Virus record (IMG/VR): IMGVR_UViG_3300031088_000782
Location: 160,001 to 224,000 of that record
Direction: 5' to 3' (one strand)
Source of the DNA: a virus
Taxonomy: Duplodnaviria > Caudoviricetes
Length of the DNA stretch: 64,000 nt
Below are positions 4,505 to 39,963 of this stretch, one piece after another. A program made the translations under genes and the position numbers. The notes under the pieces were generated by a model. The model ran no database searches. It was not told where the DNA came from and was given only the letters and a program-made list of their open reading frames with translations. The first letter of the stretch is position 1. The number at the start of each line of letters is the position of its first letter.

Positions 4505-5473
4505 ATGAGCAAATTTCATATTTCAAAAGATGGGATAGCAAGACAGTGCCGTGCGCAAACACCTGATGCTTGCCGCGCCACAAAATCAGACCAAAAAGAA
4601 CACTATGAAACAAGAGAAGAAGCAGAAAAAGCTTACGAGAAAAAGAATACAACAGTAAAAAGTTTAAGTAAGAAAAATAAGAATGATTTTGTTACTAAAA
4701 AAGTTTCTTTAAAAGAACAACTTGCGAAAAGTGAAGAAAAAGTTAGGGAAAGTTTTTCTGAACATCAGCATCACAATGATCAACAATTAGATAAAATAGC
4801 TAAACGAAATCAAACAACAACAGTAGATCTTATCAATAATTATAATGATTCTACTGATAATTATAATAAGTTTCTCAATAATAGATACGAAAATTATAAA
4901 AATGATAGTAAAATTCCATTAGAAAAATTGTCAAATGAAGTAAAAGCCGGAGAAGACTTTATTTATCATAGCAGGAAAATAGCCAGCACATCTGACGAAA
5001 GAATGGAATCATATCTAAAAAATATTAGATTATACAAAAATAGTTTGAATTTGGAAAACAAGGCTTTGAGAAAAGAAATTGAAAAAGTTGAGAAATCTGG
5101 AAGAATTCGTAGTGCTTTTGATAATGATTTCAAAACTGAAAAAGAGAATAAATTAAATGAGCTTAATAATAGATTAAAAGATAACAGAAGTTCTATTGTA
5201 AAAGCAATAAATTCAGAAGAGTCAGTTGCTGCAGGATTACAAGCAAAAAGGATTAAAATTTTAGAATCCAAAGGTTATAAGCCTGTTACTGCATATAGTG
5301 GAATGAATATGTCTTTTCATCCACAAGGTCCAGAGTTTAGATATACTTGCCCAAATTGTGGAATTGAACATACTAATAGATTGAGAAGACTTCAGTATGT
5401 TCAAGAAGTTGGATATACAGATGCTTGTAGATCATGCCGTAAAAGAATGATTTTACCTGTTACACCTGAATAA
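4505..5473 (+). CDS. Hypothetical protein with shared N-terminal KxH-C-C-H tag, coiled coil and C-terminal CxxC..CxxC
   Basis: Starts MSKFHISKDGIARQCRAQTPDACRA...HYETREEA; ends YTCPNCG...ACRSCR. Confidence 0.8.
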   Translation: MSKFHISKDGIARQCRAQTPDACRATKSDQKEHYETREEAEKAYEKKNTTVKSLSKKNKNDFVTKKVSLKEQLAKSEEKVRESFSEHQHHNDQQLDKIAKRNQTTTVDLINNYNDSTDNYNKFLNNRYENYKNDSKIPLEKLSNEVKAGEDFIYHSRKIASTSDERMESYLKNIRLYKNSLNLENKALRKEIEKVEKSGRIRSAFDNDFKTEKENKLNELNNRLKDNRSSIVKAINSEESVAAGLQAKRIKILESKGYKPVTAYSGMNMSFHPQGPEFRYTCPNCGIEHTNRLRRLQYVQEVGYTDACRSCRKRMILPVTPE

Positions 5474-5536
5474 TCTAATCTACTTTCACTATGGTGTTTA
5501 GCCCCATTTTACAATAATAATGATACTGACTCTCTA

Positions 5537-6097
5537 ATGGACAAGTATCAAAAAGAACATGGTAAATTAAAAGATCACGAAGATTTTGAAAAATATCGTG
5601 AATGGCGAGATGAATATGTTTATCAAGAATTAAAAAAGATCGAAGCATCTAAAGACAAAAATTATAATAATATAAGAAAAATGACAGCAGAGGGAGTAGA
5701 AGCACTTGATGACAAGCTAAGTGATTTAACATCTCGTGCTGTTGAATTTGAACAATCAGAATATGTTAATGAAGATGGCGAAAAAATTACTTATGATGTA
5801 ATTACTTTTAATGATTTGAGCGATATCAATTACAACATTTACAAAAAGAATGGACAATATTTTATTAAATCAGACTATCTTATGAAAAATAAAGATGGAT
5901 ATAAACCTATCACTAATGAGTTAGACACAGATAGACTATTCTCTAACAGCGAAGAATTTATGAACAATACTCATGGAGATGACTTCACTTACAACAAAAA
6001 TGAAGCTAATTCAAATAAATTATATATTAAAGATTTTGCAAACAAACATTTCTCTGAAGCTTCTGAAATATTAAAGAAAAGGTATAATATTGAGTAA
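5537..6097 (+). CDS. Hypothetical protein (in frame with the upstream ORF, no clear SD)
   Basis: 186-aa ORF; the 21 codons between the TAA at 5471-5473 and this ATG are open in the same frame. Confidence 0.6.
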   Translation: MDKYQKEHGKLKDHEDFEKYREWRDEYVYQELKKIEASKDKNYNNIRKMTAEGVEALDDKLSDLTSRAVEFEQSEYVNEDGEKITYDVITFNDLSDINYNIYKKNGQYFIKSDYLMKNKDGYKPITNELDTDRLFSNSEEFMNNTHGDDFTYNKNEANSNKLYIKDFANKHFSEASEILKKRYNIE

Positions 6098-36755: not shown

Positions 36756-38849
36756 ATGTTTATGACTGTAAGAGATGATTATCTTCAAAAAATCGAACAA
36801 ATAAAGAAGTTTTCAGAACACTATTATCATAAGAATGAAAGCCTAATTTCGGATCAAACATATGACCTTCTTGTTGAAGAAACCGCAAGAGCAGGGGAAG
36901 AAAACGGATGGACAGAGCATCTTCCTCTTGTTAAAGAAGTTGCCGCTGGGACAATAGATTACGAAGCTGACATTGAACACAAAACACGAATGTTATCTCT
37001 CAACAAAGTGAATTCAGAAGAAGAGCTGGAAAAGTTCATTACAAAACTTAATCCTGACGATGATAACAATTTCTTTATTATCGAACCTAAACTTGACGGA
37101 TTGGCTTTTCGTGTCTTTTACAACAAAGGAAAAAGAGAGTTAGTATCCTCTCGCGGCGATTCTTATTATGGGAAAAATCTCACTCTACGTGCCAACGAAT
37201 TAAATATCGAGGGACTTCCCAAAACTATTTCAAGCACACAAAAATTCGAAGTCAGAGGGGAACTGTTTATCACCAACGAAAACTATGCAAAAGTTCAACA
37301 ATTTAGAACTGCACGTTGGGCTAAGTACGAAACTGAAAAGAAGAAAGCGAAAGCAGAAAAGCGTAGATCGTCAATGACAGCACCTTCTAAACCTTTCTCA
37401 TTACAAAGGTCAGCTGTGTCAGGATCAATCAATGCAAAACCGGGAACCGACACAACCGAAATCATTCTCAGTTTCGCCGCTTATGATGTTCTCTTTGACA
37501 ATGAATCAAAACAGCCCGATACATATATTGAAGTATTGGATTTCGCCAAAGAAAACGGTATCTTAACAGCATTGTCGCTGATGACGGAAATTGATTCAAA
37601 TTTGAACACACTTGAACAAATTGAAGAATTCGGAAAGTTAAGAAATTTTCTACCTTATCCTACTGATGGATCTGTTGTGAAAGCAAATTATACAGAAACA
37701 AGAAAACTCTTAGGTGCCGGAGAAAAGCATCCGAATTGGGCAGTAGCCTACAAGTACGAAGAAGAGGTAAAACCGGCTGTAATGGCCCGTATTGAACGTT
37801 CTGTGGGCAAATCAGGTGCAATCTCCTATGTCGGAATATTTGAAAAACCTGTAGAACTTTCAGGATCGCAAGTCAGTCGAGCAACATTAAACAACGCAGA
37901 CATGATAAAAACTCTTGATGTAAGAATTGGAGATACTGTCATGGTTCGAAAAGCAAACGGTATTATCCCAGAAGTGCTTGCCGTGAGAATCGCTGATCGA
38001 GAAAAGAAAAATGTTGGAGAACCTTACGAGGCACCCACGACATGTCCACAATGCTCTGAAGATTTGGATACACAATCATCAATCATCTGGAGATGCCACA
38101 ATCCAAATTGCTCAAAACTTGAAACAATCATTTACGCAATCAGTAAAAAGAATCTAGACATACAAGGTTTAGGTCGATCCACTGTTGAAACACTTGTTGA
38201 ACAAGAAAAAATTAGTGACGTAGCAGACCTGTTTTCGATGACTCAACAAGATTGGGAAAATTTGATCATTCGATACAGCGAAGCAGGAAAGCCTGTCTAT
38301 TACGGAAAAACAAAAACAGTTACAACACTAAAAAGCTTAGCCAAAGCCCTTGAAGCACCATTAGAAAAAATTATCTCATCCCTGAACATTCGATTTGCAG
38401 GAAGCACATTCGGAAGAAGATTCGCTAAACATTACAAAAGTTTCGACAAGTTTGTCAGCACCAATATTTCTGAACTCACTCAAATCGAAGGAGTCAAAGA
38501 CAAAGCACAAATTATTATTGAAGAATTATCAAAGAAAAAAGACCTTGTTGATAAATACAGAAAAGTTGGTTTTGTCAATCTTGAAATAGAAGAAACATCT
38601 CAAAATGATTCTCAAACTATTTTCGACAATGAGAATATTGTGATCACAGGTGCTGTACCAGGATATTCACGAGATGAGATAAAGAGCCTTATTGTTAATT
38701 TTGGTGGTAAATCAGGCGGAAGTGTTTCAAGTAAGACAACGCTATTAGTAGCACCTGAAAATGAAAGAGAAACAACTAAAGCCAAAAAAGCAAAAGAATT
38801 AGGAATAAAAATAATTACGCCAGAAGAATTTTTAGACAAAATTCAATAA
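36756..38849 (+). CDS. ligA: NAD-dependent DNA ligase
   Basis: MLSLNK, EPKLDG adenylation motif, EVRGE, YPTDG.V.K, AVAYKY, RATL, Zn finger, HhH, BRCT. Confidence 0.93.
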   Translation: MFMTVRDDYLQKIEQIKKFSEHYYHKNESLISDQTYDLLVEETARAGEENGWTEHLPLVKEVAAGTIDYEADIEHKTRMLSLNKVNSEEELEKFITKLNPDDDNNFFIIEPKLDGLAFRVFYNKGKRELVSSRGDSYYGKNLTLRANELNIEGLPKTISSTQKFEVRGELFITNENYAKVQQFRTARWAKYETEKKKAKAEKRRSSMTAPSKPFSLQRSAVSGSINAKPGTDTTEIILSFAAYDVLFDNESKQPDTYIEVLDFAKENGILTALSLMTEIDSNLNTLEQIEEFGKLRNFLPYPTDGSVVKANYTETRKLLGAGEKHPNWAVAYKYEEEVKPAVMARIERSVGKSGAISYVGIFEKPVELSGSQVSRATLNNADMIKTLDVRIGDTVMVRKANGIIPEVLAVRIADREKKNVGEPYEAPTTCPQCSEDLDTQSSIIWRCHNPNCSKLETIIYAISKKNLDIQGLGRSTVETLVEQEKISDVADLFSMTQQDWENLIIRYSEAGKPVYYGKTKTVTTLKSLAKALEAPLEKIISSLNIRFAGSTFGRRFAKHYKSFDKFVSTNISELTQIEGVKDKAQIIIEELSKKKDLVDKYRKVGFVNLEIEETSQNDSQTIFDNENIVITGAVPGYSRDEIKSLIVNFGGKSGGSVSSKTTLLVAPENERETTKAKKAKELGIKIITPEEFLDKIQ

Positions 38850-38906
38850 ATTATTTAGAAAAGTTATATAACTTAGGTGTTTTTTATATAATTGGAGAGC
38901 GCTATT

Positions 38907-39963
38907 ATGGCTAAATTTCATGTTAACCCTGAAAGCGGAGAGCCGGGAGACTGCGCCGCTAATAAAGGCAAATGTCCATTCGGAGGAGAAAATGGATTAT
39001 CAAATCATTTTGAAACACATGAAGAAGCAGAAGCAGCTGGGCAAAAAATTTTACAGACTAAATATAGAAAAATAAATTCATTCAAGAAAGAACAAATTTA
39101 TCATCAATTGACAATAAATGATTTAAAAACTAATCAATGGTTTCAACTGCTCCCCAGAAAAAACGCTGAACAAGTTTTCAACATGCTCAAAGCCAACACA
39201 AATGAACAAGATGCAAATTTCATTCGATCAACAGCAGGCATAAAAAACAGTGATGCAAGAACACTTCGAGGAATAATTCAACAATGACTCAAAGAAAGAA
39301 TTCAAGAAAATCCTGCCGAATGGAAAGAAGGGCAAAAAATAGCAAGCAATCTTACAGGAGCAGAAAATAACCCTAAAAGAAAAGCCTACATTGAATCCAT
39401 CAACAACAAACACTTTGAGAAAAACGATATGGGCGGATCCAAATTCACTGACCATAGACTCACAAAAGCAGAAGATGCAATATCTCTTGCCATAGCACAA
39501 AGAGGCGGGTTGAAAGGTGATGACAGAAACAAACTTATCACTTCCGGAGCCGATCCTAATGCATTCTTACCACCAGAGTCAGGAGTAAGATATATTCAAA
39601 TTGAGGCAAAAGGAATCGAAGCCACAAAAAGCACAGCTGACATGAAAGATGATGAAATTCTTACAGTGCAAGCTAAAGACCCAAACGATCCAGAATCAAG
39701 CTTAAGCTTTGTAGCAACAGTAAAAGAACAACCAAAAACAAATGTAGGAACAATCATCATCGGGCCAAAAGAAGATGCCAATGGAGAATTGATCAAAGGA
39801 ACAGAAACACTCTGGACAATGCATCCCGGATCACCTACTCGAGGAATACGATCCAATGACATCCGAGAAAAAAGGACTTAATGATGGATCAACAATCACC
39901 GTTAAAGAACTTCGAGAAAAATTTGGAAAAGACATTAAAGCAAACACAAAAATAATTGAATAA
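38907..39963 (+). pseudogene. N-tagged hypothetical gene interrupted by an in-frame TGA (39285-39287) and a +1 frameshift (A6 at 39868-39873)
   Basis: Frame stays open across the TGA into ORF 39429-39881; deleting one A extends the C-terminus to REKGLNDGSTITVKELREKFG...TAA 39963. Confidence 0.65.

Follow-up and report, generated by a model that had tools for sequence, protein, structure and literature searches.

Introduction

Why should an ADP-ribosyltransferase (ART), a CCA-adding enzyme and three proteins of no recognisable family begin alike? The question is raised by a stretch of 64,000 nt (the window), which covers positions 160,001-224,000 of the IMG/VR record IMGVR_UViG_3300031088_000782. 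The whole record, here G000, comes from a phyllosphere metagenome and is 309,534 bp long with 35% GC. Five proteins encoded in the window start with a His/Cys domain of about 45 residues, followed by a helix and a linker rich in Lys, Ser and Thr. We call this domain the tag, and the bodies behind it the cargo; coordinates are those of the window unless said otherwise. Our answer, to which we give a probability of roughly 45%, is that the tag would be a zinc-binding docking handle for a machine encoded by the element, possibly its transfer apparatus.

Results

A recurrent N-terminal domain

All five tagged open reading frames (ORFs) are present (Table 1). Their N-termini follow the motif [KR][YF]H[IV]..G..CxA..C..H[FY].[TS]..[ED]A, from which the CCA-adding enzyme deviates by an Asn in place of the last His, and a six-frame motif scan of the window returned these five copies only. 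When a profile of the five tags was run against the 4,840 six-frame ORFs of G000, it recovered its own five (E 7e-16 to 7e-24) and six extra copies outside the window, all of them N-terminal (E 2e-8 to 1e-17; record positions 22, 25808, 93253, 233764, 250316 and 281586). ART-like cargo is found on two of these six. The next match after the 11 copies stood at E 0.06, and the recurrence of the tag in G000 far exceeds chance. The number of five given in a preliminary description of this DNA is right for the window, but not for the whole record, where there are 11 tagged proteins.

Table 1. Tags and upstream boxes in the window. E values are those of the five-tag profile.
Feature	Position	Strand	Details
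TTAGAAA box	4443..4449	+	62 nt upstream of gene 4505
HCCH tag, protein 1	4505..4639	+	gene 4505-5473, 322 aa; E 1.9e-21
TTAGAAA box	7171..7177	+	47 nt upstream of gene 7218 (ART + CCA operon)
HCCH tag, ADP-ribosyltransferase	7218..7355	+	gene 7218-8138, 306 aa; E 1.9e-23
HCCH tag (last His replaced by Asn), CCA-adding enzyme	8131..8244	+	gene 8131-9567, 478 aa; E 6.6e-16
HCCH tag, protein 4	36454..36588	-	gene 35305-36588, 427 aa; E 1.6e-21
ATAGAAA box	36643..36649	-	61 nt upstream of gene starting 36588
TTAGAAA box	38855..38861	+	52 nt upstream of gene 38907
HCCH tag, protein 5	38907..39044	+	gene 38907-39287, 126 aa; E 6.8e-24

Two of the five cargoes can be named. The second protein matches ADPrib_exo_Tox in Pfam (E 2.1e-12, residues 87-266), and the R, S-T-T and E-x-E motifs are visible in its sequence. 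The third matches the PolyA_pol head domain (E 2e-19) and the tRNA nucleotidyltransferase PHROG (E 5e-59); its gene has a GTG start that overlaps the 3' end of the preceding ART gene, so the two are probably co-transcribed. The cargoes of proteins 1, 4 and 5 gave no significant family match. That of protein 1, for which Pfam returned nothing significant, is coiled-coil-like and ends in a CxxC...CxxC knuckle. The cargo of protein 4 is conserved in the clade described below, with full-length orthologues of 33-39% identity in 10 metagenome loci. The full-length model of this protein (pLDDT 67) gave helical-bundle matches of Z <= 7.8, inside the noise range of the tool. Its residues ~195-380 form an alpha/beta C-terminal domain, the sole non-helical PDB neighbour of which is the conjugation factor PsiB (Z 5.5, within noise); this domain also matches two unnamed AFDB clusters (E about 2e-3), which we take as a lead only.

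Outside the record the tag has many homologues in metagenome data. A hidden Markov model (HMM) of the 11 sequences, searched against 1.84 billion cluster representatives of public metagenome proteins, found 4,583 at E<=1e-3 and 368 at E<=1e-10. Among the 150 best matches, which are proteins of 52-512 aa, the tag begins within 7 residues of the N-terminus in 146; it lies C-terminally, behind a Ser/Gly-rich linker, in three, it is present in two or three copies in six, and nine of the proteins have no more than 81 aa. This occurrence at the C-terminus, in several copies and alone indicates that the tag is an autonomous domain and not a leader peptide.

Alignments of 56 and 96 homologues point to a metal site. 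The first His, both Cys and the Ala between them are invariant, and the second His is invariant or nearly so. The candidate ligands are thus His5, Cys16, Cys22/23 and His34, in the order H-C-C-H with spacings of about 10, 5-6 and 8-12 residues. An AlphaFold model of the tag of protein 5, built on the 56-row alignment (pLDDT 79.5), has a beta-beta-(beta)-alpha layout: two strands (residues 4-6 and 13-15) and a short third one (34-35) are followed by a helix (38-58), so that all four candidate ligands precede the helix. From this conserved tetrad, the tag probably binds zinc. A small beta-hairpin plus helix with two Cys and two His recalls the C2H2 fingers. However, in these the Cys pair lies in the hairpin and the His pair in the helix, whereas the tag has a different ligand order and no ligand in its helix; moreover, its resemblance to C2H2 structures does not rise above noise (Z 2.1-2.6), and none of the zinc-finger models in Pfam matches it.

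No described family was found for it. Searches of Pfam-A 2025, NCBIfam 20, PHROGs v4 and the PDB sequences gave no significant match over the tag, and its homologues in the large database are named 'hypothetical protein', without a precomputed Pfam domain. Fold searches of the tag model against the PDB (Foldseek; VIA-align, all representatives) returned only noise (best Z 3.2), with Kunitz-like and C2H2-like small folds as neighbours at that level, and a look-up in the ESM Atlas returned only unnamed clusters. Literature searches found neither the domain nor the elements that carry it. The domain, its ligand pattern, the carrier clade and the upstream box presented below are described in no library or paper searchable here.

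Most of what the preliminary description had read from the window therefore stands: the five ORFs where it placed them, the ART, the CCA-adding enzyme and the three cargoes without family (by the Pfam and PHROGs matches and nulls), the portability of the tag among unrelated cargo (11 copies in G000, and varied bodies among the homologues) and the plausibility of the tetrad as a zinc module. Profiles built from the tags and run on the genome and the databases have found further copies and no characterised family.

The carriers are giant elements of one clade

The tag is almost confined, as far as the searched collections tell, to one undescribed clade of giant elements. Comparison of the tags with 50,697 phage and 72,556 plasmid records (tblastn) gave no true match, nor did megablast of the region against phages. 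The exact pattern KYHINPETG had zero matches in GTDB genomes and IMG/VR, and the looser YHINPET(G) was found in one IMG/VR record, 40 JGI metagenome loci and four metagenome-assembled genomes (MAGs) of uncultured Actinomycetota. In evenly drawn samples the tag was present in 1 of 401 Actinomycetota genomes and in 1 of 151 genomes of the same order, in both cases the centre genome itself.

The IMG/VR record found in this way, IMGVR_UViG_3300045988_179014 (here G001; 344,889 bp, 41.6% GC), is bounded by inverted terminal repeats (ITRs) of at least 55 bp, perfect, and is syntenic with G000, with 149 common genes of 22-78% identity. It has 12 tags by profile, plus a divergent copy (223966-225111) and a decayed one (53421-53969). 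The 40 metagenome loci range from 33 to 69% GC, on source contigs of up to 727 kb; many of their non-tag genes are common to G000, and the densest of them have tagged genes in runs of 8, 8, 10 and 6. Each element of the clade carries 10-14 tagged genes, and we think that the clade probably comes from Actinomycetota.

An FtsK-like protein of the window (42050-43195) bears on the size of these elements. Since an identical copy is recorded on a contig of 681,645 bp, the 309.5-kb 'provirus' record is a piece of a larger contig. Homologues of this protein lie on contigs of 424-727 kb, many of 670-727 kb, which may represent an undescribed clade of very large elements. We also considered that contigs of ~0.7 Mb could be tiny cellular genomes; this seems less likely, as GTDB genomes of such a size lack the tag pattern and G001 has terminal inverted repeats. 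The Inocles of Streptococcus, which are giant and plasmid-like too, form a comparable class, but are circular (PMC12340149).

The four MAGs (loci L083-L086, ~9995-10540) hold a cellular homologue of the tag, single-copy and of 181-185 aa, with the HCCH domain N-terminal and a hydrophobic, probably membrane-spanning C-terminal half. In Aeromicrobium and Nocardioidaceae it has relatives, which are annotated as hypothetical proteins and have no Pfam domain. The gene neighbourhood of the chromosomal homologue is not conserved and gave no functional clue. By its sequence, this protein may point to the lineage of the host or, alternatively, to a partner or decoy on the host side.

Transfer genes, and no match to the virion families searched

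The preliminary description had seen in the tag an address label for effectors, with loading into the phage head, as in T4, for one destination. According to this explanation, the tag would bring its cargo into a virion-like particle for injection. IMG/VR does class both G000 and G001 as viral, the cargo domain of protein 4 very weakly matches phage P1 head chains and DarA/DdrB-type domains (E 0.2-0.7), and head-packaged ARTs are well documented in phages (PMC9503650). The tag also resembles the T4 capsid targeting sequence (CTS) of Alt and IPI-III: in both cases, unrelated proteins of a mobile genome begin with a constant element, and an ART that acts on the newly entered cell is among them. 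However, the T4 CTS is a short unstructured leader that is removed by the prohead protease and requires a capsid, while the tag is a folded domain with a ligand tetrad, which may also be C-terminal or duplicated.

The gene content speaks against a capsid as well. The families of HK97 capsid, three large terminases, portal, sheath and baseplate J (PF05065, PF03237, PF03354, PF17289, PF04860, PF04984, PF04865; controls matched) found no match in G000 or in the ITR-bounded G001, and PHROGs found no virion family for any of 10 large proteins without annotation, although divergent virion genes can escape such models and G000 is part of a longer contig. Instead, G000 has a transfer cluster with two T2SSF proteins (TadB/C-like), a T2SSE ATPase, TcpE (E 8e-10), a VirB4-like AAA_10 ATPase (E 8e-52), a CpaE-like ATPase and a weak CpaB. 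A TrbL/VirB6-like protein of 1,214 aa (E 4e-5) and a second T2SSE ATPase are also encoded. This cluster, which combines Tad and type IV secretion system (T4SS) genes, is flanked by two tagged genes. VirB4-like, TcpE, VirB6-like and TadB/C proteins and two T2SSE ATPases are encoded by G001 as well. G000 further encodes replication and maintenance functions (DnaB, RecG, PIF1, class I ribonucleotide reductase, gyrase, LigA and a ClpB/ClpC-like AAA_2 ATPase), a penicillin-binding protein with PASTA domain, tRNAs, a transfer-messenger RNA (tmRNA) and a small signal recognition particle (SRP) RNA. From its genes, the carrier is best described as a giant conjugation-type extrachromosomal element and not as a tailed phage. 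Loading into a capsid is thus very improbable. The address label itself is still the best reading, but its destination is likelier to be a transfer or secretion machine.

A common upstream box

Most tagged genes are preceded, at 25-85 nt, by a box TTAGA[AGT]A or ATAGAAA. In G000 it stands before 9 of 10 tagged genes and 16 of 331 others (Fisher P 1e-10), and in G001 before 10 of 12 and 7 of 402 (Fisher P 3e-14); both P values are inflated, because these two records supplied the tagged genes from which the motif was derived post hoc. Seven metagenome loci that took no part in its definition (L048, L050, L051, L054, L056, L077 and L082; 33-56% GC) have the box upstream of 28 of their 44 tagged ORFs, and most of the box-less ones directly follow another tagged ORF. 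Among the few non-tagged genes with the box are NrdE, the VirB6-like gene and a small membrane protein, and for two such genes the box is kept at the G001 orthologue. As the box is common to the tagged genes and few others across the clade, the tagged genes form most of a conserved regulon. The box itself is probably, to judge by its placement, the promoter or operator of this clade-specific regulon.

The fact that box and tag together precede different bodies would also be obtained by gene capture behind an existing expression cassette. The tag could then be a functionless leftover of duplication or recombination at a conserved promoter-plus-5'-end. Yet the protein, including its four putative ligands, is conserved in thousands of clusters and in elements from 33 to 69% GC, with paralogous tags 30-56% identical to one another, which implies selection on the peptide and not on the DNA. 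The single-copy cellular version retains the tetrad, too. An inert relic is, in our opinion, the least probable of all the explanations.

Coordinated expression could also belong to a common control module. The tag would then act as a switch that senses zinc or redox state, or offer a hold to an unfoldase or protease encoded by the element, and all the enzymes would be stabilised, activated or destroyed as one set instead of being transported. The metal-ligand residues are invariant, the element has its own ClpB/ClpC-like ATPase, and a regulon with a common box suggests that its products are deployed in concert. But nothing ties the Clp-like protein to the tag, copies at the C-terminus or in tandem would be unusual if the tag were a degron, and the effector-like, fast-turnover cargo would be left unexplained. 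We regard such a module as improbable.

Cargo and its turnover

Most of the 96 tagged homologues show no known cargo domain. Where it can be recognised, the cargo is ART, HNH, 2H-SAK, Zeta toxin/AAA_33, Fic, RNase_T, GNAT, LPD1, LPD29 or ATLF, usually one such domain per protein at most; YqaJ, YqaJ+RNase_T and M78 peptidase cargo occurs in other loci. The view that the cargo is of effector type is well founded for these recognisable bodies (ART, nucleases, RNA-repair enzymes, Fic, kinase). LPD1 and LPD29 owe their names to polyvalent proteins, for which entry into cells together with the DNA is predicted (PMC5512222). Despite their 149 common genes, G000 and G001 have only two tagged cargoes in common, as expected from the turnover of an arms-race arsenal.

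Many of the cargoes that can be recognised are enzymes acting on nucleic acids (CCA-adding enzyme, YqaJ, RNase_T, HNH, 2H-SAK, PNK-like AAA_33 kinase). The HCCH knuckle with its basic linker could accordingly be a small DNA- or RNA-binding module that needs no machine to recognise it, by which the enzymes gain affinity for the element DNA, for incoming single-stranded DNA or for tRNA and other RNA. The 35 residues after the tag core are indeed basic (+1.4) and rich in K, S and T, and 7-15 residues past the domain they show a hydrophobic-S/T-K-K pattern; tandem and C-terminal copies are typical of binding modules, and C2H2 fingers are among the weak fold neighbours. Nevertheless, the folded core is net acidic (mean charge -1.0), those fold matches are at noise level (Z <= 3.2), and a generic binder would be expected to spread widely, which is at odds with a domain nearly confined to one clade of elements. 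We consider a nucleic-acid tether unlikely, though it deserves to be kept in mind.

Discussion

The tag is a constant folded domain that comes in paralogue arrays, on varied effector bodies, with coordinated expression and within one clade. This combination argues for a recognition domain and not for a generic biochemical module. We hypothesize that giant conjugation-type elements fuse the tag to a co-regulated and fast-changing set of enzymes, and that one partner, encoded by the element or by the host, recognises the constant domain. The ligands would be held on the beta-hairpin, the loop and the short third strand, followed by the long helix and the Lys/Ser/Thr-rich linker. In this way, a dozen unrelated effector-type enzymes could arrive jointly at one place and at one time. 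Of the possible destinations, the T4SS/Tad-type transfer apparatus of the element and, through it, the newly entered cell would be the likeliest. In this scheme, zinc binding, the binding of a partner, the identity of that partner and the translocation of any protein are what we infer.

It is tempting to go one step further and propose that a hybrid T4SS/Tad machine recognises its substrates by the HCCH domain, and that the element, on transfer, co-injects a dozen enzymes from separate genes into the recipient. This more specific proposal concerns an undescribed clade of elements of 0.3-0.73 Mb, at least one of them ITR-bounded, and we hold it as doubtful but worth pursuing. If true, it would represent a folded, N-terminal, metal-binding T4SS signal of an undescribed kind, and a conjugative counterpart to the effectors that phages package in their heads. 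Known T4SS signals are comparable in part: the Bartonella BID domain with its positively charged tail, as well as relaxase signals, resemble the tag in joining a folded domain to a basic tail, and the element encodes VirB4, TcpE and VirB6-like components. By analogy with these effectors, the tagged proteins may be translocated via the T4SS.

Several points weigh against the docking handle. The T4SS substrate signals that we know of are C-terminal or internal; none is an N-terminal folded domain, nor a metal-binding knuckle. Tagged genes are scattered over the element and not clustered beside the transfer genes. No partner was identified; the one complex prediction, of the tag with the FtsK-like ATPase, scored 0.00, which is evidence neither way. 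The nucleic-acid-acting cargoes (CCA enzyme, YqaJ, RNase T, HNH, 2H) fit a tether equally well. Pfam virion models miss divergent proteins of jumbo phages, and G000 is part of a ~682-kb contig, elsewhere on which virion genes could lie. The box, as said, was defined post hoc, and no RNA run contains the sequence.

A conserved head on swappable effectors is a known design. The polymorphic toxins and the effectors with marker domains (LXG of type VII secretion systems, T7SS; MIX and RIX of type VI, T6SS; DUF4157 of extracellular contractile injection systems, eCIS) also place a conserved head on exchangeable enzymatic bodies such as ART, HNH, Fic or kinase, with many paralogues per genome, arrays and fast turnover. 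The tag differs from them in several respects: no sequence or fold relationship to their marker domains was found, its carrier is a giant mobile element instead of a chromosome, and some of its cargo is non-toxic in kind (CCA-adding enzyme, YqaJ). Furthermore, tagged genes are consecutive, often overlapping or adjacent, and no regular small ORF lies between them, immunity genes not having been searched for directly. T6SS, T7SS or eCIS genes were not identified in the element by a search that was not exhaustive. As the tagged proteins start with the tag, they have no signal peptide.

A similar domain vocabulary is found in the polyvalent proteins, known from phages and conjugative elements (Iyer, Burroughs, Anand, de Souza, Aravind 2017; PMC5512222), in which 2-15 effector domains are joined in one giant polypeptide. 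ART, 2H-SAK, LPD1, LPD29, the zincin-like ATLF and GNAT are common to both, as is the presumed early-acting role accompanying the invading DNA, elements with T4SS delivery included. Here, however, each effector is a separate gene with its own tag and its own box, encoding a protein of 52-512 aa, and the text of that paper (PMC5512222) mentions no such HCCH domain.

If the docking handle holds, the tag would define a new fold family, compact and metal-binding, whose thousands of members are so far unannotated. It would serve as a sequence marker for the deployable arsenal of very large mobile elements that are so far unstudied. The cargo domains of this arsenal, mostly without known family, would be candidates for new anti-defence or host-takeover activities. 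It would likewise make the establishment of giant elements in a new cell accessible to experiment. As a tool, the tag could direct proteins to its binding target, and through the TTAGAnA box the gene regulation of the elements themselves can be approached.

Other features of the element

An RHS-repeat protein of 2,123 aa (record positions 226568-232939; RHS_repeat E 2e-76, DUF6531) is encoded just upstream of a tagged gene and the Tad/T4SS cluster. G000 also has numerous large paralogues that contain repeats of DUF4379 treble-clef fingers and/or Mom-like domains, at record positions 123416-127096 and 141302-143437, at 43265-45256, 57195-58772 and 59529-61469 of the window, and elsewhere. Several of these copies map to one single G001 gene; an expansion of homing-type or DNA-modification genes within the element is a possible explanation.

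Finally, the element has its own genes for both gyrase subunits (B and A), for a PD-(D/E)XK nuclease of Cas4-like type and for an NAD-dependent DNA ligase in the window (54961-57093, 61531-63984, 49452-50426 and 36756-38849), which also contains nine tRNA genes. The small SRP RNA lies at 18369-18461, with an Rfam score of 42.7 bits that barely exceeds the gathering score of 40. Directly downstream of it, at 18464-18816, is the tmRNA (133 bits), whose tag peptide reads ANANKNAYALAA.

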